Shown in pieces: positions 3,021-52,546 of a stretch of 64,000 nucleotides of DNA; positions within the stretch are counted from its first letter, which is position 1; each line of letters opens with the position of its first letter. The stretch is from Gammaproteobacteria bacterium (GTDB lineage: Bacteria > Pseudomonadota > Gammaproteobacteria > UBA6186 > Azoamicaceae). The stretch is taken from contig JBGAIP010000004.1 of NCBI GenBank assembly GCA_044225395.1, positions 15,098-79,097 of the forward strand. The letters run 5' to 3'. The position numbers were made by a program, and so were the translations under genes. The notes beneath the pieces were generated by a model that was given only the letters and a program-made list of their open reading frames with translations, was not told the DNA's origin and made no database searches.

Positions 3021-3764
3021 AGAAGCAGTAAAACAATTTTGCTGTTTGTATATCATATTAATCGCCACAGGTGATGCCAGCTCTATTCACCGCGAGCCTT
3101 TAGCCCTGGTATATAGCATGACGTATTCCATTACACATGTTGTCTATCAACCAATTGTTGTGAAGCAGTCTTACTATGCAGCGAAGCAAAACCATTAAGG
3201 ATAGATTACCATGATTATTGCTTATCTAAATAGGAAAAAACTTGGAAGATACGAGATTTCTGCCGAAAACCAAAATTTGCTTAAAGAAGCTATTTGGATC
3301 GATCTTATTTCGCCTTCAAGGAAGAGGAAGCATTAGTTGAGGCCTGTCTCAATTTAGACATTCCAACCCGAGAAGAGATGGTCGAAATTGAATTATCCAG
3401 CAGACTCTACAAAGAAGATGATACGCTCTTTATGACGGCAACCATGATTGCGCATTCTGATTCTCCCGAACCTAAACTTGATGCTATTGCTTTTGTTCTA
3501 ACAAAAAAACAGTTAATCACCGTTCGTTATATAGAACCTAAATCTTTTATTTTATTCATTTCACAATTGCAAAAACGTCATACAACACATCTTCATGCCA
3601 CAACCTTGCTAGTAGACTTGTTAGATATAAACGTTGATCGACTAGCCGATATATTAGAACTGATCGGGCATAGACTAGATGAGTCTTCAAAAGCAATTTT
3701 TAGACCTCAAGATGACAATGAAGTTAAACCGGATTATAAAGAATTCATGCAACAAATTGGTATC

Positions 3765-5060
3765 TGTAGTGCTCCCCAAATAAACCGGACCACCTAGGAC
3801 TGCTCTAACGAGATAGGAATAGGAGTAGGAATATGACTATTAACAACGGTGTAGAGGTTACTGAAATTATTTGTTCAACCAACAAGAGGAAACGATGGAC
3901 TGGCGTTGAAAAGCGACAGATCGTCAATGAAACATATCAGGCAGGAGTATCAGTCTCGTATATTGCCAGAAAAAACATGGTATACCTCTAGCCAATTATT
4001 CTTGGCGTAAACATTGGGGAGGGGGAGCATTGGCAGGCGTTGATTCAAGAAGAAAAGGTCGTACCGTTAAGTCGGGTTAAGGAACTTGAGAAACAGATCA
4101 AGAAGTTAGAGCGTATTCTGGGGAAAAAGACCCTGGAAGTCGAGATTTTAAAAGAGGCTATCACCATTGGTAGGGAAAAAACTGATCTCGCGGCAACCCT
4201 TATACGGAGTGGAAGATTTCGAATAAGAGGCATTGCAAGGCTTTAGGAATATCACGTTCTAATTTGTATGACAGAGAAACGAAGGATAAAGGTATGATTT
4301 CAACTGAAATTGAAAAAGACGAATCCTCTTAGAAGCGATAAAAAGAGCTGATAAAAATAAGGTAACTTATGGTTATCGCCGAGTAACAGCATTATTAAAT
4401 CATTGTTCTAATCAGTCAAAAATTGAATCACAAACGAGTATATCGTCTGATGAAATTGTCTGGATTATTATTGCCAAAACACGGTATCTCAAGACCTTCG
4501 CGAACTCATACTGGTCAAATTCAAACCTTAAGAAGCAATACGCGTTGGTGCAGTGATTATTTTACGATCCCTTGTTGGAATGGAGAAAGGGTTTATGTCG
4601 CTTTCAGCCTAGACACTTGCGACCGAGAGGCTATGCGATACGTAGCATCAACGAAGGGGATTAATGGCGAAGCTATCCGTGATTTGATGGTGGAAACGCT
4701 CGACTATCGCCTTAAAGGTATTATGCCGAATCGCAAAATCCAATGGTTATCCGATAATGGTCCAGCTTACGTTGCTCACGAAACAATAGAATTTGGACGA
4801 AGGATAGGTTTAGAGATTTGTACTACGCCACCTTATAGTCAGAGAGTAACGGTATGGCTGAGGCATTGGTTAAAACTTTGAAAAGGGATTACGTCTGGGT
4901 TTCTGATTTATCGGATGCTCAAATGGTAATGAGGCAATTGCCGGGATGGTTTGAGGATTACAATGAGAAGCTCCTCATAAAGCATTGCAAATGCGTTCCC
5001 CAGGCAGTATATTAAGCATAAATCGGCAAGCTAAGTGGTCCGGTTTATAGGGGCAACTCA
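3765..5060 (+). mobile_element. IS3-family (IS2-group-like) insertion sequence, decayed
   Basis: TG...CA termini. Imperfect terminal inverted repeats: tgtagtgctccccaaataaaccggaccac versus the reverse complement of gtggtccggtttataggggcaactca. 5-bp target duplication GTATC at 3760-3764 and 5061-5065. Excising the element restores the corA frame. Confidence 0.8.
3834..5035 (+). pseudogene. IS3-family transposase orfA/orfB with stops and frameshifts
   Basis: orfA begins MTINNGVEVTEII..KRKRWTGVEKRQIVNETYQAGVSVSYIARK, then hits a stop. The leucine-zipper part is KELEKQIKKLERILGKKTLEVEILKEA. orfB (4423..4881) has the DDE-region motifs SDNGPAY and PYS, then a frameshift before the expected PESNGMAEAFVKTLKRDY. 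Confidence 0.75.
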
Positions 5061-5614
5061 GTATCAATGGAGATCTTGATAAAAAACAGGAAAGCTTATT
5101 AACTTTTCAACGATTAGTCGCATTCTTTTTGCAGTCCATTGGCTCAAATGCCGATCAGGATACACAATCACGCTTAACAAGCATCAGTAAAGATATTGCT
5201 GCTTTAAGCGATCATGCCAATTTTGTTGCAAATAAAGTAACCTTCTTATTAAGTGCTACCTTAGGTATGGTTAACATTGAGCAAAATAATATTATTAAAA
5301 TAGTTTCTGTAGCGGCAGTGATCTTTCTACCACCAACGCTTATTGCGAGCATATATGGTATGAATTTTCATGTTATACCAGAACTGTCTTGGAAATATGG
5401 ATATGTGTTTTCTGTTGTATTGATGTTGCTCGCTGCTTGGTTACCTTACAAATATTTCAAACTCCGCAAATGGTTATAAAGGTAATATAAAATATTAATT
5501 ATTACCCTTTCTCTTAAACGTGTAACAAATCTGTTGACACCTTCAATTTAACAGTGTTAGGCTGTCGCCGTAATCAAATCTAACTATTTGCCCATAACTA
5601 AGGAGGACATAAAA

Positions 5615-6881: not shown

Positions 6882-9128
6882 ATGCCAATAACAGTTGTTA
6901 TAACATCAAAGTTTGTCAAGGAAAACAACGATACCAAGAAAGTTTTAGATCTTTATCGCGATGCATTAGAGCATAACGAAATTAATCCTCAAAGCGATGG
7001 TGGTGTTACATCTGTTGGGGATGCCGCATTGGGAGAAAGTAGAGTTGGGCCCGGTCTTTTGGACCCAATTACAGCCATAGTAGAAGATCGGCTTAATAGA
7101 CCTTTGGGAGCACACAGACAAATATTACCGGAAGTGAGAATTGAAGTAGAAACACCAGCAGAACTATTACTAAGGCATTATTTAAATTTCTTAAATGAAA
7201 AACTACTTGATGAGAAAATAGACATAGCCCAAACAAAAAGTGGTGCTACAATTACATCGGTACATGTTTTGATTCAACAACTATTATATAAATTAGCGGC
7301 TGCTGCATTAAGTAACAAATCTGATGATCAAAATGATGGTATAAAATTAAAAAGTGCAATGGATGCTTTTGTTGACAGGATCCATAATGAAGAAATTTTA
7401 ATAAAAAATGATAAACTAGGAAAGTTCGCGCTTGAGCTGTCAAACGAACATAATAATTGGGTTCGAGCAATTACAAACATGGTTAATATTGCTCATGTTG
7501 TTAATAGCAATAGAGCCAATATCTCTAATACTTTAAATCAGTTAAGGGATGCTGAAAAAATCATCCAACGACAAATAATTTTTTATATCAATGAAGAAAA
7601 AGCACCTTCTTCTCGACCACCTGAATGGTTAGATATTACTTTAGAAGCATGTGAAAAAAGCGTTCTTGATAATGGCCAACCAAAAAATCCATTGGCATTA
7701 AGTGTCTTAACGCAAAATTTAACGGTTAACAACGAAAGACTGAGGTTAAGTTTAACAATAAATGAAAGACAGAAAGCAATTGTCTCTCGTTTAAAAAGAG
7801 ACAAAAACTTAGAAGCTGCACTACCCATAGTGACACAATTATATGGACTGTTAAATCAAGTGCGCTATTTATGTGATCTGATGTCACGTTTAGATTCGTT
7901 AATGAATATTACTGGGTGGCTGCCGGTATTATCAGGCGTTATTGATTTTACAAAACTCAGTATTTTAATAAGTGATTTTGGCAAAAGTTGCAATGCAATA
8001 TTGTCGATTCCAGAACCCTTTAAAACAACAGAGCTGCAAAAGAAAGGGAGGGGTCGTGGCTTACATAAATACAAGGCGCTATCAGGAAATGCTATAGCTT
8101 ATCAATTAACTGAAAATAATTTACAAAGCCTAGATGACCACTTTTTAAAAGGGCAAATCCGGGATATGATCATTGGCGCAGTAACATCCTTAGTAGAATT
8201 ACAAGATCAATTACCCGTTGAACAGCGATTTGTTAATCTACAAAAATTAGGGCTAGAAAATAATAATATTCCTTTTTTTCCAGTACAACAACCTCTGCTT
8301 CCTAGAGCAAAAACTGTACCACAACCCAAACAACCACAACTTCCTTCTGCATCTCCTAAAAGAGAAAAACGATCGGAAGGAGCTGAAACCTTCACAACAA
8401 CAGAACTTTTACATATGTTCTTATTTGAAGGTTCTCAAGATCTTGGTGCTTTGGAAATATTTAAAAAATTGGGCGCTAATTTTCAAGCAGAATCTTCCGA
8501 CGCTGTTTGTTTGCGTTTACGTTCTAAAATTCTTGATTCAAATGAATATATTGCCCCTAACCCAGAAGATGCGCAAAAGGTATCTGGAGAAGATGAAAAC
8601 GAGCTCAAACTACTACAATTAATAACAAAAGCTAAAGCATCTTATACAGGATGTTCAGCATTACATTATGCTGCCATGGCGGGAAGCGATGAAGTATGTG
8701 GATGGTTAATAAAAGAAGGGATTCCCATTAATATAGCTGATAAAAGTGGAAAAACACCCCTTGATTGGGCAAGTGAAAAAAGAAAACGAACTGTCATTGA
8801 ATATTTAAAGTCTAAAGGTGCTAGAAGTGAAAAAGTACAAGATGCTTGTAATCGTTTAGTTGCATTTTTACTGAGACCTATTCCAGCAAATCCAGACATT
8901 GAAATGGTAAAAAACTGGATTCATGCAGGCGCTTATGCAACAGCTGATCAGCTTAATAATTTGTCAGACCAAAACCCGAATTTTAAAATGTGGTATGAAA
9001 TAAATTACCCTGGCGGATTGACTGAATATAGACCAGCGGGTAACCCACCAGCTGTAATATTCAGCGCTACACTTCCTCGGCCGTCTGTGACAGAACCCTC
9101 TTCAAAGACGTTGAAACCGAAAAAATAG
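6882..9128 (+). CDS. Large hypothetical protein with C-terminal ankyrin repeats (effector-like)
   Basis: 748-aa ORF. ANK consensus at ~8650-8822: CSALHYAAMAGSDEVCGWLIKEGIPINIADKSGKTPLDWASEKRKRTVIEYLKSKGA. Pro/Gln-rich linker PRAKTVPQPKQPQLPSASP. Confidence 0.75.
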   Translation: MPITVVITSKFVKENNDTKKVLDLYRDALEHNEINPQSDGGVTSVGDAALGESRVGPGLLDPITAIVEDRLNRPLGAHRQILPEVRIEVETPAELLLRHYLNFLNEKLLDEKIDIAQTKSGATITSVHVLIQQLLYKLAAAALSNKSDDQNDGIKLKSAMDAFVDRIHNEEILIKNDKLGKFALELSNEHNNWVRAITNMVNIAHVVNSNRANISNTLNQLRDAEKIIQRQIIFYINEEKAPSSRPPEWLDITLEACEKSVLDNGQPKNPLALSVLTQNLTVNNERLRLSLTINERQKAIVSRLKRDKNLEAALPIVTQLYGLLNQVRYLCDLMSRLDSLMNITGWLPVLSGVIDFTKLSILISDFGKSCNAILSIPEPFKTTELQKKGRGRGLHKYKALSGNAIAYQLTENNLQSLDDHFLKGQIRDMIIGAVTSLVELQDQLPVEQRFVNLQKLGLENNNIPFFPVQQPLLPRAKTVPQPKQPQLPSASPKREKRSEGAETFTTTELLHMFLFEGSQDLGALEIFKKLGANFQAESSDAVCLRLRSKILDSNEYIAPNPEDAQKVSGEDENELKLLQLITKAKASYTGCSALHYAAMAGSDEVCGWLIKEGIPINIADKSGKTPLDWASEKRKRTVIEYLKSKGARSEKVQDACNRLVAFLLRPIPANPDIEMVKNWIHAGAYATADQLNNLSDQNPNFKMWYEINYPGGLTEYRPAGNPPAVIFSATLPRPSVTEPSSKTLKPKK

Positions 9129-9184: not shown

Positions 9185-9973
9185 CTATAGTAACCCCACT
9201 ATAAGACCTGTGCCTACCAGTAATAGCATTACTGCAACAATTATCTGTACAAAATGCAACGTGACTTTATGTATAAAATACATACCGATCAACGACCCAA
9301 TAAATGCTCCAACTACACCTGCACTAATCGAAGGCAAAAGTTGTTTCTCAGATGTTCTAAAACCATTCATTAAAAATCCCGATCCATAAACAAATAAACG
9401 TGCTGCATCAACGATGACGGATGAAACAACACTAGTAGCTATAAATGCATTTTTTGATAAGCCAGTTCTAATTAAAAATGCTGCTCTTAATGCGCCCTGA
9501 TTTCCGGATAAACCACCTATAAATCCCGATAACAAACCACCAAAAGGTAACCATTTAATAGGTAGAGAAAGAGTTTGTTGAAAACGCTGAGATAATTCTA
9601 ACAATGAAAAAGCTACAATTAAAATTCCAATAACTATTTTGATTGTAGTAATCTCATGCATAGAACTGCCAATATTATAATTTATTAGCGAGGGAAACTG
9701 ATCTATACGATTAAGTATTGCTGCCCCCATCATTGCTGCTATCGCAGCTGGAATACTAAAACGTACTACAACATGCCAATCAGCTTGCTTTGCCATTATA
9801 AAAAACTTGAAAATATTATTAGCAAAATGCACCACTGCTGTAGAAGCAATAGCTAGAGGTAACGGAAAAAAAAGCGCAAATACTGGCATCAAAATTGTGC
9901 CTAACCCAAACCCAGAAAAGAATGTCAATCCTGAAGCAACTAGTGCAATAGAGCCTATTAGTATGGGTTCCAT
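9185..9973 (-). CDS. TauE/SafE (TSUP) family anion exporter membrane protein
   Basis: 262-aa polytopic membrane protein with two-fold internal symmetry and the Gly-rich helices typical of TSUP. Confidence 0.75.
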   Translation of the reverse strand: MEPILIGSIALVASGLTFFSGFGLGTILMPVFALFFPLPLAIASTAVVHFANNIFKFFIMAKQADWHVVVRFSIPAAIAAMMGAAILNRIDQFPSLINYNIGSSMHEITTIKIVIGILIVAFSLLELSQRFQQTLSLPIKWLPFGGLLSGFIGGLSGNQGALRAAFLIRTGLSKNAFIATSVVSSVIVDAARLFVYGSGFLMNGFRTSEKQLLPSISAGVVGAFIGSLIGMYFIHKVTLHFVQIIVAVMLLLVGTGLIVGLL

Positions 9974-46920: not shown

Positions 46921-47945
46921 ACTTTTAATAATCCCATCACTTCTCGAACTTCAGATAAGGTTTTGCTGGCTGCTTGCCGCGCAACTTTGCTGCCTTCTTT
47001 TACAATATCTTTCACTAAGTCTGGATTTTTTGCGTAAGGTTCTGCGCGCTTAATAATCACGGCCTGTTCTGCTAAGACTGTGTCAATAACAGGCTTTTTG
47101 CACTCTAAACAACCAATGCCCGCACTTCTACAACCTTGCTGTACCCATTCTTGTGTCTCGCGTGTAGAGTAGACTTGATGAAAACGCCAAACAGGACATT
47201 TTTCAGGTTCTCCGGGATCAGAACGCCTAACGCGTGCGGGATCAGTTGGCATTGTTTTAATCTTATGCTCTACCGATTTTGGATCTTCTCTCAACCCAAT
47301 CGTATTATGATAAGACTTAGACATTTTTTGGCCGTCTAAACCCGGCATTTTACTGGCCTCGGTTAATAATGCTTTAGGTTCTGGAAAAAAAGATTGTTGC
47401 AATCTATCTTGATATAAATGATTAAAATGTCTTGCGATTTCTCGGGTTAATTCTATGTGTGAAACCTGATCTTCACCCACAGGCACAAATTCTGGTTTAT
47501 ACATTAAGATATCTGCGCTTTGTAAAACGGGATACCCTAAAAAGCCGTATGTGGCTAAATGCTTTTCTTTGAGTTTACTGCGTAATTCTTTATAACTGGG
47601 CACACGTTCTAACCAGCTTAATGGCGTTAGCATGCCCAACAAGACTTGTAACTCTGCATGTTCTGGTATATGCGATTGCACAAAAAAAGTACAAAGATTG
47701 GGATCAAGGCCTGCCCCTAGCCAATCTACAATCATTTCGGATGTATATTGCGCGATGCGCTCAGGATGTTCGTATTCCGTCGTTAAAGCATGCCAATCAG
47801 CGGCAAAAAAGAAACACTCATATTTTGACTGTATATTTACCCAGTTTTTTAGACAACCCTGATAATTACCTAGATGTAGCTCACCCGTGGTACGGATACC
47901 CGAAACAACCCTCGTACCTTTATCAACTCGGTTACGTGTATTCAT
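46917..47945 (-). CDS. trpS: Tryptophan--tRNA ligase
   Basis: HLGNY (HIGH-type) and KMSKS motifs. 342 aa. Confidence 0.95.
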   Translation of the reverse strand: MNTRNRVDKGTRVVSGIRTTGELHLGNYQGCLKNWVNIQSKYECFFFAADWHALTTEYEHPERIAQYTSEMIVDWLGAGLDPNLCTFFVQSHIPEHAELQVLLGMLTPLSWLERVPSYKELRSKLKEKHLATYGFLGYPVLQSADILMYKPEFVPVGEDQVSHIELTREIARHFNHLYQDRLQQSFFPEPKALLTEASKMPGLDGQKMSKSYHNTIGLREDPKSVEHKIKTMPTDPARVRRSDPGEPEKCPVWRFHQVYSTRETQEWVQQGCRSAGIGCLECKKPVIDTVLAEQAVIIKRAEPYAKNPDLVKDIVKEGSKVARQAASKTLSEVREVMGLLKV

Positions 47946-48136
47946 GTGCCTATTACAAAATAAGAGAAGAATAGTGACACTTTACGAAGATATTGCGTAT
48001 CAAGCAAGTTTAGCTAAAAAAATGTATATGCGGCTGTTTTTATAAACAGCCAATATGGAAGCCGCTTACTATTCAAATACCTCTAAACTTGGTAAACTTA
48101 AACTTATTGATTTTAGCTTAAATTTAGGGACAAACC

Positions 48137-48673
48137 ATGAAATTCTTATTTGATTTTTTCCCCATAGCACTTTTCTTTATTGCTTTTAAAATGGGGGATA
48201 TCTACCTCGCAACCATAACTGCCATTGTTGCAAGTGTTATACAAGTATTGTGGTCTCGATACAAAACAGGGCGATTTGAAAAATTACCGCTTATTACACT
48301 CGTCACAATTGTTATCTTAGGTGGCGCAACATTATTTTTTAAAAATGAATTATTTATTAAATGGAAACCCACTGCACTTTATTGGGTACTTGCGCTTGCT
48401 TTGTTTATAAGCCAATTCATCGGAAGAAAGCCGTTAATGCAACGTTTATTGGAACAAAACATCGAGTTGCCTATTAAAATTTGGCATCAACTGAATTTAA
48501 GTTGGGCCCTCTTTTTTGCAGCAATGGGTATTGCAAACCTTTATGTAGTGTACCATTTTGATACTGACACTTGGGTTAATTTTAAATTATTTGGTACATT
48601 GGGCTTAACGTTGGTTTTTATTGTGCTGCAAGGGTTCTATATGGCAAAGCATTTTAATCAAAGTAAGGAATAA
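48137..48673 (+). CDS. yciB: Intracellular septation protein YciB/IspZ
   Basis: MKFLFDFFPIALFFIAFK.. and five TM helices. Confidence 0.9.
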   Translation: MKFLFDFFPIALFFIAFKMGDIYLATITAIVASVIQVLWSRYKTGRFEKLPLITLVTIVILGGATLFFKNELFIKWKPTALYWVLALALFISQFIGRKPLMQRLLEQNIELPIKIWHQLNLSWALFFAAMGIANLYVVYHFDTDTWVNFKLFGTLGLTLVFIVLQGFYMAKHFNQSKE

Positions 48674-48676
48674 CAC

Positions 48677-48949
48677 ATGGCACAATCCACAGATAGAATC
48701 AGTCTGATTAAAGCCGCTCTGCAAAGCTTACAACCCACACTGCTAACCATAGACGATCAAAGTAATTTTCATGCAAACCATCCAGGCGCACAAAGTGGCG
48801 GCGGACATTTTACACTCACCATTGTGAGCAATGTATTTGAAGGTAAATCATCAGTGCGACGCCATCAAATGATCTATGAAGCACTAGGGGATTTGATGAA
48901 GCACGATATTCACGCGATTAGTATTAATGCAAAAACGCCGAATGAGTGA
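48677..48949 (+). CDS. BolA-family protein
   Basis: ..HFTLTIVSNVFEGKSSVRRHQMIYEAL...IHAISINAKTPNE. Confidence 0.88.
   Translation: MAQSTDRISLIKAALQSLQPTLLTIDDQSNFHANHPGAQSGGGHFTLTIVSNVFEGKSSVRRHQMIYEALGDLMKHDIHAISINAKTPNE
48922..48949 (+). repeat. 28-bp direct repeat, copy 1 (3' end of the bolA-family gene; putative att site)
   Basis: tattaatgcaaaaacgccgaatgagtga is identical to 50771-50798. Confidence 0.9.
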
Positions 48950-48953
48950 CTCT

Positions 48954-50138
48954 TCAAACTATTTCTTTATTCCACAACTTCTTTAGAAATATCTCCCAAG
49001 GTAAAATTAAGATTTCTCTGCCCAATTCCGTTGTTATTTTTCGTGGATGCGTATCTCTTGAAACCACATAGGCTTGTTCGGGTTGATGTTCATCACAAAA
49101 TGCAATAAGACCCCTCAAATCTTGCTTGTTTACGTTATCATCAATTTTAACTTCTATTGCAACCTTGCCACCACCTAAAATAAAATCCACTTCTAACTTT
49201 GTTTTGGTCCTCCAAAAGTTAATGTCAAAATCTAAATCATTTAACCCTCTATAACCCATCAGTTCCATTAAAATAAAATGCTCAAAGGCATTACCAGCCT
49301 CGCTGCCATTCAATATTGAGATAGTTTGCTTTGAAAGAAAATTAGCAACGCCCACATCAAATAAATAAAATTTAGGCGTAGCACTAATAACATCGCGGCC
49401 CTTCTTTTTTATATACGGCTCTACAAAGTAACCCACCAGAGTATCGATTAAGATTTGATAATATTCTTTGATCGTTTTTGAATCAATAGCACACTCTCTA
49501 GCAATATTTGAATAATTAACCAGCATGCCATTGCTAAACACTAAAGAATCTAAAAAACGTGCAAAAGCAGGAAGATTCCGTGTTAACCCTTCGGCTTTAA
49601 TTTCGTGTGTTAGATAATCTTGCACATAAGCTTTTAAAGAACGTCTCGGATTTTCTGATAAATAATGCGAGGGTATAAGCCCTGTATTTAAAGCACGTAA
49701 TAGATTAAAATTCGTAATTTCAGGGTAAACCAGTGGATAAAAAGTATAACCCCAAGCACGGCCTCCCAATAAATTCACGCCTGCTCTTTTGAGCTTTCGA
49801 GCGCTAGACCCACACAATATAAACTGAGCATTTGCATTTTCAATGAGCCAATGGATCTCATCTAACAATGAAGGCACTTTTTGAACTCCGTCAATAATAA
49901 TGGGATATTTTAAAGCTTCATTATCCAGTGCCAAAATTTCTTCACGCAATAAATGTGGCGCTTTTGTGAACTTTAAAAAAACATCCGATTTTAATAAATC
50001 ATAATAAATAGAGCGTGGGTAATGACCATGAAGATAGGTCGATTTTCCAGTTTTCCTAGCCCCCCATAAAAAAGCAGACTGCCCCTTGGGCAGGTCTACT
50101 TTAAGAAGACGTTTATAAGTAACTAATTCGGAATTCAT
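48954..50138 (-). CDS. AAA-family ATPase with DUF4143 domain
   Basis: Walker A WGARKTGKST. AAA_14-like N-terminus. The C-terminal half is typical of DUF4143 proteins. Confidence 0.8.
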   Translation of the reverse strand: MNSELVTYKRLLKVDLPKGQSAFLWGARKTGKSTYLHGHYPRSIYYDLLKSDVFLKFTKAPHLLREEILALDNEALKYPIIIDGVQKVPSLLDEIHWLIENANAQFILCGSSARKLKRAGVNLLGGRAWGYTFYPLVYPEITNFNLLRALNTGLIPSHYLSENPRRSLKAYVQDYLTHEIKAEGLTRNLPAFARFLDSLVFSNGMLVNYSNIARECAIDSKTIKEYYQILIDTLVGYFVEPYIKKKGRDVISATPKFYLFDVGVANFLSKQTISILNGSEAGNAFEHFILMELMGYRGLNDLDFDINFWRTKTKLEVDFILGGGKVAIEVKIDDNVNKQDLRGLIAFCDEHQPEQAYVVSRDTHPRKITTELGREILILPWEIFLKKLWNKEIV

Positions 50139-50263
50139 TCCTAAATAGTATCACTAATTCGGAATATATTCCATATTAGTTATGACAAATTTTGGATCCC
50201 TTCAAGACAATCTGGCTAACCCACCACGAAATACTTGTATATCAACATAATATGTCGCTGCTT

Positions 50264-50365
50264 AATGTGGTGCTGACGCACGCTTATAGCTGCCGATTCT
50301 CTCGAAGTTACGTTTGGCTAAGCCCGGCTGTCTTCCTCGCGAATGCGGGGATCCAGTCAAAAATA
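50264..50365 (+). repeat. 102-bp inverted repeat, left arm
   Basis: By manual comparison, a perfect reverse complement of 50618-50719. Contains the small hairpin tcctcgcgaatgcgggga. Confidence 0.9.
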
Positions 50366-50474
50366 AATCAAACACAATAAAAAAATCGCTTTTTCGTGCA
50401 AGAATAGGAATACAAGCGAAGCGCAAAAAAAGCGGTTGGAATAATCAATATTTACTTAAGATGTTATCTGCAAC

Positions 50475-50606
50475 ATGAAAGAAGGGTATGTTTATATTCT
50501 AGCGAGTCAGCGAAACGGTACGCTGCATGTTGGCGTAACTGCGTATTTACGAAAACGAATACATGAACATAAAATTGGGGTTGTGCCAGGATTTACATCA
50601 AAATAA
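50475..50606 (+). pseudogene. GIY-YIG nuclease-family (UPF0213) gene remnant, truncated after 43 codons
   Basis: MKEGYVYILASQRNGTLHVGVTAYLRKRIHEHKIGVVPGFTSK then a stop. Full-length family members are ~90-100 aa. Confidence 0.7.
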
Positions 50607-50617
50607 GGAGTATGAAT

Positions 50618-50719
50618 TATTTTTGACTGGATCCCCGCATTCGCGAGGAAGACAGCCGGGCTTAGCCAAACGTAACTTCGAGAGAATCGGCAGCTATAAG
50701 CGTGCGTCAGCACCACATT
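50618..50719 (-). repeat. 102-bp inverted repeat, right arm
   Basis: Reverse complement of 50264-50365. Confidence 0.9.
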
Positions 50720-50770
50720 TTGATAAAAGGCATTGGCGTTGGGTTGGTGCAAGGATAAAAAATAACTCAA

Positions 50771-50798
50771 TATTAATGCAAAAACGCCGAATGAGTGA
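50771..50798 (+). repeat. 28-bp direct repeat, copy 2
   Basis: Identical to 48922-48949. Retains coding potential for ..INAKTPNE plus the stop. Confidence 0.9.
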
Positions 50799-50810
50799 TT
50801 TTCCTCAAAT

Positions 50811-51806
50811 TTAATTTAAGAATTCGCCCCAAAAATCTATACTACCTTTAAGTGCTACAGGCGATTGTTGATTAATTAAAATAATAATACCAATGTCTTC
50901 ATCGGGTATCAATCCAATAAATGTACTGACGCCTGAGATAAATCCACTATGAAATATTAAATCTTTACCAGGATATTCTTTAGGCTTTAAAATACGCCAC
51001 CCCAGGCCGTAATAAGAATTAAACTTATCTCTATCGGATTGCCATCCTATCTGCCATTTATCAACATCGTGATTCGTCATACTCGTTTTATATAGAGAAT
51101 CTAATGTTTTCTGAGAAATAAGATCGGATCTATAACCAAAACTTAATTTAAATAATTCAATCATGCCATCAATCGATGCGAAAACACCTGCTGCTGCAGG
51201 TGCTGCTTTTGGATAATAAGGCGGGAATGGCAATGGTTTGAGGAAATTTTCCGTTGTTTTATCTCTGCCGTGAGGATAAGCAACTTCTAAATGAGAATCG
51301 ACTGGAACAAGTTGAAACCCTTCTGTTTTAAGCGTCCGTTTGAGATTTTGAATAGCAGACTTCAAGCTCGATTGTTTGGTATTTAGCGCCTCTTCAACCA
51401 GTCCAAAAATCATGTTGCTGTAAAAATAACTTTCACCTGGTTTAGATTTGGGCGTTTGCGTTTTAAGTACCTCTAAAATTTTTTGACGACTCATTCCCTG
51501 CTCAATCTGAGCATTGCCTGTAAATGGGTATCCTGTTGTGTGGCCCAAAAGATTCCTTAAAGTAACAGGATACTTGAGATAAGGTAATTTGAATGTTTCA
51601 TCAAAGCTCAACGCACCCTGATCAACCATCAGTGCAATGGCTGTAGCTGCAACTGGCTTCGATACAGATGCTAAGGGAAACAATGTTGTTGATGTAATAA
51701 GTCCAGTATGGCCTTTTTGATAACCAAATGTTGTTTTATAAACTACTTGCCCTTTATACAAAACAGCGAAAGCCCCACCTTGCAGCTCACCCTTTTGAGA
51801 TTCCAA
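50811..51806 (-). CDS. Serine hydrolase / class C beta-lactamase-family protein; signal peptide appears to be in a different frame
   Basis: SxxK motif in LASVSKP. A candidate signal peptide MRFLTVVMMLFCITSAVAES starts at 51906 but runs into TGA. The mature domain continues in a frame offset by one nt, with the junction near 51812-51825. Confidence 0.75.
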   Translation of the reverse strand: MESQKGELQGGAFAVLYKGQVVYKTTFGYQKGHTGLITSTTLFPLASVSKPVAATAIALMVDQGALSFDETFKLPYLKYPVTLRNLLGHTTGYPFTGNAQIEQGMSRQKILEVLKTQTPKSKPGESYFYSNMIFGLVEEALNTKQSSLKSAIQNLKRTLKTEGFQLVPVDSHLEVAYPHGRDKTTENFLKPLPFPPYYPKAAPAAAGVFASIDGMIELFKLSFGYRSDLISQKTLDSLYKTSMTNHDVDKWQIGWQSDRDKFNSYYGLGWRILKPKEYPGKDLIFHSGFISGVSTFIGLIPDEDIGIIILINQQSPVALKGSIDFWGEFLN

Positions 51807-51913
51807 TTTTTCAAATAAAACGCTTCAACTTTGCTGGAATTTCTAGCGATTCTGCTACAGCAGATGTTATGCAGAATAACATCATGACGACTGTCAAAAA
51901 TCTCATCAAACTT

Positions 51914-52546
51914 CTATTCATTTTTTTCTGATACCTGCGAACTTGTCATTAAAAATGTTCTGAATTTTTCCATTAGCCCCTGCATCGCTTGAGCACGATG
52001 ACTCATTTTATTTTTGACTTCTAATCCCAATTCGGCAAACGTTTTGTCGTACCCTTCTGGTACAAAAATGGGATCATAAGCAAACCCATCCTCGCCTCGC
52101 GGCGGAAAAGTAAGTAAGCCTTTATCTTGAGCTTCGTGCGTGATTAAGAAATCATGAGACGGTATATATAAGACAGTCGCACTATTAAAAGAAGCGGAAT
52201 AATTACCAACGTCTCTTAACATTTCTTCTAATTTTATAAACGTCTTTGCCATACCACCACATTCTACTGAAAATTCTTTTGTTCTGACGCCTGGAAAACC
52301 ATTTAATGCCTCAAGACTTAAACCCGAATCTTCCGACAATGTCGGTAAGTTTGTATGTTGCGCATAGTATTTTGCTTTATGAATAGCATTTTCCATAAAA
52401 CTATGATGCGGTTCATCTGGTTCAGGAATATTAAAATCTTTTAAAGATCGCACATCAATTTTTAGGCCGTCTAACGCATGCAAAATTTTATGGATTTCTC
52501 TTATTTTACCTTCATTTGTTGAAGCAACAACTATTGTATAATGCAC
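51914..52546 (-). CDS. rdgB: Non-canonical purine NTP pyrophosphatase RdgB/HAM1
   Basis: [26 protein letters not shown]. Confidence 0.9.

Follow-up and report, generated by a model that had tools for sequence, protein, structure and literature searches.

A 1.85-kb islet bounded by two copies of the bolA 3' end in an uncultured gammaproteobacterium, most likely a by-product of recombination between versions of a hypervariable locus

We have analysed a stretch of 64,000 nucleotides (the window; contig JBGAIP010000004.1 of assembly GCA_044225395.1, positions 15,098 to 79,097 of the forward strand) from a bacterium of the gammaproteobacterial family Azoamicaceae. Behind its bolA-family gene lies an islet of 1.85 kb that is bounded by two perfect direct repeats of 28 nt and carries a gene for a candidate phage-defence ATPase with AAA_14 and DUF4143 domains, together with a fragment of a GIY-YIG nuclease gene. 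We see nothing unusual in kind here: an accessory islet flanked by repeats in a recombination hot spot, which most likely arose as a side product when versions of the locus recombined and is probably not a new mobile element. The host is an uncultured gammaproteobacterium, probably amoeba-associated, and its closest named relatives are uncultured Gammaproteobacteria.

The repeated 28-mer, TATTAATGCAAAAACGCCGAATGAGTGA, has exact matches on the forward strand at 48922-48949 (direct repeat 1, DR1) and 50771-50798 (DR2), identical at 28 of 28 positions. No third copy is found in the window at up to three mismatches (0 expected, 100 shuffles) or at up to eight. DR1 is the tail of the bolA gene (48677-48949, forward strand, 90 aa; Pfam BolA, E = 3.7e-27) and covers the third base of the ninth-last codon, the last eight codons (INAKTPNE) and the TGA stop; it is followed by CTCT and then by the stop codon of the ATPase gene (48954-50138, reverse strand), so that the two stops are only 4 nt apart. 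DR2 is an orphan copy of the same tail, followed by TTTTCCTCAAAT and then by the stop codon of a serine hydrolase gene (50811-51906, reverse strand, convergent), 12 nt from the repeat. Past the bolA stop the flanks of the two repeats are alike at 7 of 10 positions if a 2-nt TT indel is allowed (CTCTTCAAAC vs TTCCTCAAAT). G+C content is equal within and outside the islet. The original prediction, made from the letters of this DNA, had described perfect 28-bp repeats that duplicate the bolA 3' end, a GIY-YIG remnant inside a 102-bp inverted repeat, and the lack of an integrase. The repeats are exact as described, and a 43-aa GIY-YIG fragment does lie between the two arms; the length given for the inverted repeat was essentially right (arms of 110 nt, 103 nt of them perfect), and the ORFs of the islet hold no tyrosine or serine recombinase.

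Two close relatives carry the locus without the islet. In L225 (Logan assembly of run SRR22387816) and L228 (ENA ERZ27253171) the bolA tail is followed by a spacer of 10-12 nt and the stop codon of the convergent hydrolase gene, and the 28-mer is present as a single copy. The order is ATCAG, CATTAATGCAAAGACGCCAAATGAGTGA, TTTTCTCCAAAT, TTA in L225 and ATTAG, CATTAATGCAAAGACGCCGAATGAGTAA, TTCTTCAAAT, TTA in L228, where the complete bolA gene is present. Both are 95-97% identical to the window in the hydrolase gene; rdgB follows that gene in L225, and the L228 contig ends inside it. The surroundings of DR2 (bolA tail, T-rich spacer, CAAAT, TTA) are those of the sole copy in these two relatives, which were retrieved only through cluster members and not by the search of GTDB with the hydrolase. 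A bolA gene directly followed by the hydrolase, with a single 28-mer, had been proposed as a check on the original prediction, and it is now seen twice, in independent samples and assemblies. The repeats bound a true presence/absence (insertion/deletion) variant.

The interval between bolA and parC is a hypervariable spot. Its flanks keep the conserved gammaproteobacterial gene order, with scpA and trpS, then ispZ and bolA on the left and rdgB, parC and parE on the right. The ispZ-bolA synteny, which makes bolA the conserved left anchor, is kept in 56 of the 80 related loci retrieved. The right anchor is rdgB/Ham1 (51914-52546, reverse strand; assigned by NCBIfam), followed by parC and parE and syntenic with L210, L213 and L226. 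Between these anchors at least six arrangements occur: bolA-ATPase, bolA-hydrolase, bolA-rdgB, bolA-GIY-YIG-ATPase, bolA-hypothetical-parC and bolA-ATPase-ATPase2. L003 (~79% nucleotide identity to the window) has a hypothetical gene and then parC after bolA. In L001/L002 (~80%) a YhbQ-like GIY-YIG gene (98 aa), the ATPase gene and other genes follow, and in L223/L224 (~81-83%) the ATPase gene, a 42-aa ORF, a second DUF4143 ATPase gene and parC. L210 (~80-82% in the flanks, 85% over bolA-ATPase) has the ATPase gene, three iterons, a frameshifted YhbQ-like GIY-YIG gene and rdgB. In L213, L217, L220 and L222 (~90%) rdgB begins 2 nt past the bolA stop, and L218/L219, of the same species as L213, have the L213 order with an added 130-nt segment. 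The neighbours in this spot are of nuclease/defence type, namely two kinds of GIY-YIG gene and the second DUF4143 ATPase; a 483-aa protein of L001 looks Schlafen/AlbA_2-like by eye.

The L213 and L218 versions part at the exact point where the contigs L215 and L216 end, and both versions therefore coexist in single samples of this sister species. Three lineages with bolA genes of only ~90% identity share hydrolase genes that are 96-97% identical, from which a recent exchange of the hydrolase segment follows.

The left and right junctions of the islet do not look to be of one age. From bolA through the 4-nt spacer and the ATPase gene to the palindromes over the ATPase start (48665-50195), the window is unbroken relative to L210 at 85% identity, and likewise relative to L223/L224. 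In all three the ATPase gene stands 4-5 nt past the bolA stop with a colinear junction (83-86% nucleotide identity). The synonymous divergence (dS) from L210 is 0.74 for the ATPase gene and 0.77 for bolA, with flanking core genes at 1.0-1.4, and relative to L001/L002 the ATPase gene and the flanks have equal dS. Read most simply, the adjacency of bolA and the ATPase gene looks long-standing. Recurrent site-specific integration would also rebuild the same junction, so colinearity is no proof of a single old event.

DR2, by contrast with that junction, is judged from its substitutions to be much younger. It is the bolA tail of its own lineage, including a lineage-specific A at position 13 that is absent from L213, L225 and L228. 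The bolA tails of the relatives differ from DR2 at 1 of 28 positions (L213), 3 (L225, L228 and L001, each) or 7 (L210). DR2 is read as young because it tracks lineage-specific substitutions of the tail; a neutral 28-mer dating from the time of the bolA/ATPase junction would not have done so. The same observation led us to reject an ancient pair of attachment (att) sites kept since the arrival of the ATPase gene. No second bolA tail is found, at up to 7 mismatches, in L210, L223, L224, L001, L002 or L213, and among 56 other ispZ-bolA loci there is no duplication of the tail apart from one unrelated local repeat. Every lineage keeps the motif T(C/T)AAA(T/C) a few bases past the bolA stop. In the ATPase loci the motif is the stop and last codon of the ATPase gene, and in the hydrolase loci and after DR2 it lies in the spacer. 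From this distribution the bolA-ATPase order would be ancestral, and the hydrolase version would have arisen from it when the body of the ATPase gene was replaced.

The explanation that we favour, with a probability somewhat short of even, is that an ATPase haplotype and a hydrolase haplotype recombined, homologously on one side and illegitimately on the other, and left an orphaned bolA 3' end. Small accessory genes, mostly of nuclease/defence type, would be gained, lost and shuffled between bolA and rdgB/parC. The lineage would hold two versions of the locus: in the clade's old state the DUF4143 ATPase gene stands directly behind bolA, and in the other version the serine hydrolase gene takes that place. 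A cell carrying one version would take up the other; a homologous crossover would occur in a flank common to both (bolA/ispZ to the left, or rdgB/parC to the right), and the other end of the fragment would be joined illegitimately at 50770|50771, as in homology-facilitated illegitimate recombination, a mechanism defined in PMC3240628. The recombinant seen in the window would then carry the ATPase version on its left and the hydrolase version on its right, the latter bringing its own bolA tail and spacer. On this account the last 28 nt of bolA are doubled because each version has a bolA gene and the illegitimate join landed 28 nt short of its stop. DR2 would be an orphaned gene end, not a recombinase site, and the 28-nt repeats may later mediate deletion of the islet. 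We infer both the recombination mechanism and the coexistence of the two versions in one species.

Several observations are consistent with such an exchange. Both parental arrangements exist, each with a single tail: bolA-hydrolase in L225 and L228, and bolA-ATPase in L210, L223 and L224. The identity of the repeats ends at the bolA stop, exactly where the two versions cease to be homologous, and the 7/10 likeness beyond it is what two junctions of common descent should show. For type VI secretion system (T6SS) and Rhs loci, incoming modules have been proposed to displace the 3' end of a conserved upstream gene and leave it orphaned by this mechanism (PMC5361080). The two marks of that process are present here, with alternative modules behind one anchor gene and a displaced fragment of the anchor between modules, the right flank of DR2 matching the hydrolase-only version. 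Since DR1 and DR2 are identical, donor and recipient would have been conspecific, which fits the within-sample polymorphism of the sister species. A diverged donor like L225 or L228 is disfavoured, as DR2 agrees with DR1 at 28 of 28 positions and differs from those tails at 3 of 28.

Five points weigh against recombination between versions. The conspecific donor version, against which microhomology at 50770|50771 would be read, was not seen: scans for the 28-mer and for the 51-nt flank of DR2 were negative. Insertion by an integrase, too, classically leaves a perfect repeat that ends at a stop codon and restores the end of the gene. Next to plain homologous replacement, homology-facilitated illegitimate recombination is a rare event (PMC5361080). 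Two features beside the junction, the perfect 103-nt inverted repeat and the truncated GIY-YIG gene, are left unexplained, and an additional or more complex recent rearrangement is possible. Finally, the uncultured host has no known natural competence or conjugation.

The integrase signature leads to the strongest competing explanation, which we regard as possible but unlikely. The islet would be a decayed or trans-mobilised element resembling a cis-mobilizable element (CIME), and the two 28-mers would be the attL and attR sites of a tyrosine or serine recombinase that targets the bolA 3' end. A CIME is a decayed integrative and conjugative element (ICE) or integrative and mobilizable element (IME) that has kept attL and attR and lost its integrase (PMC5704250). 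Here the integrase would have been lost or be encoded elsewhere, the islet would have moved in trans, or in cis with an incoming element, and the junction of an excised circle would read ATAACTCAA, the 28-mer and CTCTTCAAAC. The anatomy agrees with the published definition: a small islet, direct repeats that include the 3' end of a protein gene, no recombination or transfer genes, and empty sites (PMC5704250). The perfect 28-bp repeats regenerate the gene end, the two close relatives have one-copy empty sites, and the partial similarity over ~10 nt past the identity block is of a kind often seen between attP and attB. A site-specific mechanism would moreover account for the same bolA/ATPase junction in different lineages. 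Repeats of comparable length are found in the CIMEs related to ICESt1 and ICESt3 that occupy the 3' end of fda.

Searches for a recombinase and for other uses of the site point the other way. A domain scan covered 59 of the 62 window ORFs of at least 90 aa (the other three are parE, dihydrofolate reductase and thymidylate synthase by synteny) and found no tyrosine or serine recombinase domain. None lies between bolA and parC in L001, L002, L003, L210, L213 or L223 either, and neither the window nor these relatives' loci hold a cognate integrase or ICE at the site. The only transposase-like match in the window is an rve (DDE transposase) fragment at 4423-4881, 44 kb away. It belongs to a separate remnant: corA is interrupted, its N-terminal part lying at 3294-3797 and its C-terminal part at 5129-5479, and the gap holds the 152-aa rve fragment of a decayed insertion sequence. 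The window also carries remnants of defence and toxin-antitoxin genes, namely AbiEii toxin and AbiEi antitoxin fragments (105 and 102 aa) and a HicB antitoxin-like ORF, at 1350-2248 and 62984-63331.

Recurrent use of the bolA end as an att site is likewise absent from the six relatives, the 56 other loci and viral contigs, where a degenerate bolA-tail pattern gave no match. Exact scans for the 28-mer or for a 24-mer gave no match in genome contigs or metagenome contigs, and the 51-nt flank at 50720-50770 gave none in a scan of metagenome contigs. Comparison of 50181-51950 (ATPase gene excluded) with plasmid and phage collections by blastn gave no match. In the islet, scans with Rfam and for tRNAs stayed at noise level, with neither a tRNA nor a tmRNA as a target. 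The relatives that bear the ATPase gene lack a second bolA tail, the divergence of that gene follows the core genome, and the 28-mer has, by inspection, no obvious dyad symmetry. A site for Xer, as used by integrative mobile elements exploiting Xer (IMEX), was considered as well, a dif site being 28 bp (XerC arm, 6-bp spacer, XerD arm); it was rejected by inspection, as the 28-mer lacks dyad symmetry and any likeness to the gammaproteobacterial dif consensus. Unlike a CIME, the islet shows no trace of decayed conjugation or integration genes, and its cargo gene is resident at the site in diverged species that lack the repeats. Of the original proposal of site-specific integration with attL and attR, the repeats and the empty site hold up; the missing recombinase, the single tails of the ATPase-bearing relatives and the youth of DR2 speak against the rest. 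An integrative element of this type is weakly supported, and the islet probably does not represent an incoming element with dedicated attL and attR.

In a second, improbable alternative, the state seen in the window would be the older one and the 'empty' relatives would have arisen by deletion between the 28-bp repeats, DR2 itself having come from a local template switch or from a partial tandem duplication and deletion, with no foreign donor. Homologous recombination or slippage can delete the DNA between 28-bp direct repeats at a distance of 1.85 kb. Nearby, a recent rearrangement of template-switch or fold-back type is evident from the perfect 103-nt inverted repeat and the truncated GIY-YIG gene. 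A similar small duplication brackets another insert in L001/L002, where TCAAAT stands after bolA and TTAAAT ends the ATPase gene 668 nt further on, with the GIY-YIG gene between. This course of events would, however, need two precise breakpoints at the two ends of the 28-mer and would leave the origin of the hydrolase gene unexplained. It would also require either a reversal or a duplication after the lineages split, the A at position 13 being in both copies of the window and absent from L225, L228 and L213.

An assembly chimera, in which coexisting bolA-ATPase and bolA-hydrolase strain versions were threaded through the shared 28-mer, is still less probable. In its favour, the source is probably a contig of 116,994 bp assembled from a metagenome, the locus is polymorphic within single samples of the sister species, and an assembly error might account for the frameshifted hydrolase gene. 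Window 47006-50293 is matched at 100% identity by an independent Logan assembly (L081, run SRR28480388), which covers the junction of DR1 and the ATPase gene; it supports the DR1 side only, and exact ORF look-ups in Logan for the DR2 junction returned no record. Against a chimera, CTCAA followed by the 28-mer must exist in reads for any path through the graph, and the base before DR2 differs from that before DR1. A 28-nt repeat is also shorter than the k-mers or reads normally used for final contigs. The Logan assembly has the same DR1 side and again shows the arm of the inverted repeat as repeated sequence: its contig breaks 30 nt into the left arm, as a true repeat is expected to break an assembly at k = 31.

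We give the least credence to the idea that the DUF4143 ATPase module is a self-mobilising, integrase-free element that inserts specifically behind the bolA stop, alone or with small GIY-YIG nucleases, and duplicates or carries the 28-nt gene end. Such a scheme would explain the same bolA/ATPase junction in lineages otherwise different at the locus and, if true, would provide the first clue tied to function for a very large family of uncharacterised proteins.

The ATPase (394 aa) matches Pfam AAA_14 (3.9e-15) and DUF4143 (2.9e-29), and has no relative in the PDB that is detectable by sequence. It is a full-length match to the PADLOC candidate defence family PDC-S01 (PDLC04790, 3.5e-43; PDLC04789, 3.5e-38) and shares the AAA_14 + DUF4143 architecture of the PDC-S01/COG1373 ATPases. 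PDC-S01 is a candidate family only, with no known phenotype, structure or mechanism. DUF4143 (COG1373) has been placed in the PD-(D/E)XK nuclease superfamily (PMC3424549). The earlier statement that DUF4143 ATPases have no established role is still correct experimentally; it is qualified by the PDC-S01 match and by this nuclease assignment. The protein is thus a candidate single-gene defence protein, and judging from family membership only its role is most likely that of a self-regulated ATP-dependent nuclease acting against invading DNA. Orthologues that are 87-91% identical adjoin the bolA locus in L210, L223/L224 and L001/L002. At an unrelated locus, L211, AbiE genes lie ~4-5 kb from a 72%-identical homologue.

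Two imperfect palindromes of 28 nt with four ACTAATNNGGAAT half-sites (50122-50180) overlap the start codon of the ATPase gene and are operator-like. They are kept in L210, L223, L224, L001 and L218, and the conservation of the four half-sites over the start in all orthologous loci suggests tight repression, possibly autoregulation. Homology with all relatives stops at or within ~15 nt of their right edge (50173-50195). Beyond it the window has an 83-nt segment (50181-50263) with no homologue in any relative. This segment and the inverted-repeat unit stand where the relatives have iterons. The iteron-like sequence AAACAGGGTGGATTTTTAACC occurs upstream of the palindromes in three copies in L210 (~9830-9920) and L223/L224 (L223 ~7830-7930), in one copy in L218/L219 (L218 ~880-905) and not in the window. 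The 130-nt segment between bolA and rdgB in L218 (782-926) and L219 (803-947) contains the operator palindromes and one iteron and lacks the ATPase gene; it is a remnant or a small insertion. We rejected a scar of ATPase deletion for this segment: of the ATPase gene only the palindrome overlapping its start is present, and the adjacent AGGTAT is the native tail of rdgB.

Other genes of the spot vary in position. The YhbQ-like GIY-YIG gene of 98 aa lies between bolA and the ATPase gene in L001 (5545-5841) and L002 (8638-8934). It also follows bolA in L004 (5281-5577), whose contig ends before any ATPase gene, and in L210 it is found, frameshifted, on the other side of the ATPase gene (~9520-9800, reverse strand). 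A second, larger DUF4143/AAA_14 ATPase gene adjoins the first and replaces rdgB in L223 (6442-7818, 458 aa) and L224 (2854-4185, 443 aa). Left of the spot, an EamA-family transporter gene stands between ispZ and bolA in L002 (~7640-8334), L004 (4037-4984) and L210 (11467-12381), and not in the window.

The hydrolase gene, whose start lies 7 nt past the stop of rdgB, encodes a protein of beta-lactamase fold (PF00144, 1.8e-43) with a signal peptide (MRFLTVVMMLFCITSAVA). Assignment as a class C beta-lactamase was rejected, the best score being 57 bits against an NCBIfam cut-off of 415, and it is best described as a generic serine hydrolase. An extra T near 51813-51816 puts it in a +1 frameshift relative to the intact orthologues of L225 and L226, which marks either a pseudogene or an error of assembly. 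Its relatives in GTDB are at most 70% identical and do not stand beside bolA; relatives are found in amoeba- and arthropod-associated bacteria.

The inverted repeat occupies the middle of the islet. Its left arm (50264-50373, forward) and right arm (50610-50719, reverse) are 98% complementary over 110 nt, the 103 perfect nucleotides included. The GIY-YIG fragment between them (50475-50606, forward strand; PF01541, 4.1e-6) is the N-terminal 43 codons of a COG2827-type small nuclease gene, which is cut off at the start of the right arm and has no C-terminal part after it. Only residues 2-43 align in tblastn with full-length relatives, and a search for an intact parent of the 43-aa fragment returned the fragment itself and a 64%-identical protein of 66 aa. 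To the right of the second arm a unique segment of 51 nt (50720-50770) leads to DR2, and its right end, 50770|50771, is the junction that homology does not explain. The unit 50264-50719 was considered as a transposon or miniature inverted-repeat transposable element and rejected; it has inverted repeats, but no flanking duplication and no other copy in the window. The outer 20-mer of the arm has only two, chance-level, matches in 596 Gb of genome contigs.

Each arm contains a hairpin resembling a repetitive extragenic palindromic (REP) element, at 50328-50357 and 50626-50655. It belongs to a 27-nt palindromic repeat, GTCATCCTCGCGAATGCGGGGATCCAG, whose 21-nt core is found exactly in at least 119 loci (L083-L201) against ~0.3 expected by chance. 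These loci span distant phyla (Patescibacteria/Saccharibacteria, Alpha-, Gamma- and Deltaproteobacteria, Bacteroidota and Chlorobi), and the hairpin often adjoins related hairpins such as CTGGATTCCCGCCTTCGCGGGAATGAC. A COG2827-type GIY-YIG gene is present in only two of these 119 loci, in both within 50-85 nt of the hairpin. A literature search found no paper on this cross-phylum repeat. Its identity across phyla may deserve a study of its own.

Among known systems, the effector-immunity arrays of the Vibrio cholerae T6SS and the orphan arrays of Rhs and contact-dependent inhibition (CDI) loci come close to the islet, with a conserved upstream anchor gene and alternative downstream modules, a module that is added and not swapped, a 3'-end fragment displaced downstream, and no recombinase (PMC5361080; PMC3240628). 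Unlike in those arrays, the cargo here is a single ATPase gene beside the housekeeping gene bolA and not a set of toxin-immunity pairs, one 28-nt fragment is displaced and no array is formed, and the mechanism is one that we infer. The likeness to defence islands and hotspots lies in small nuclease/defence-type genes that vary between fixed core genes and are turned over by recombination in the flanks. Unlike typical defence islands the bolA-parC spot is very small (0-6 kb), and its genes are candidate defence genes only.

The islet carries a caution for the reading of such structures: site-specific integration is not proved by a perfect direct repeat that restores a gene end, taken alone, as a gene end orphaned by one-sided homologous recombination looks the same. 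For the biology of these bacteria it offers a small and clean case of a candidate defence gene that is kept, lost and re-added at a fixed chromosomal spot, with the occupied, the empty and several alternative states all recovered from public data.

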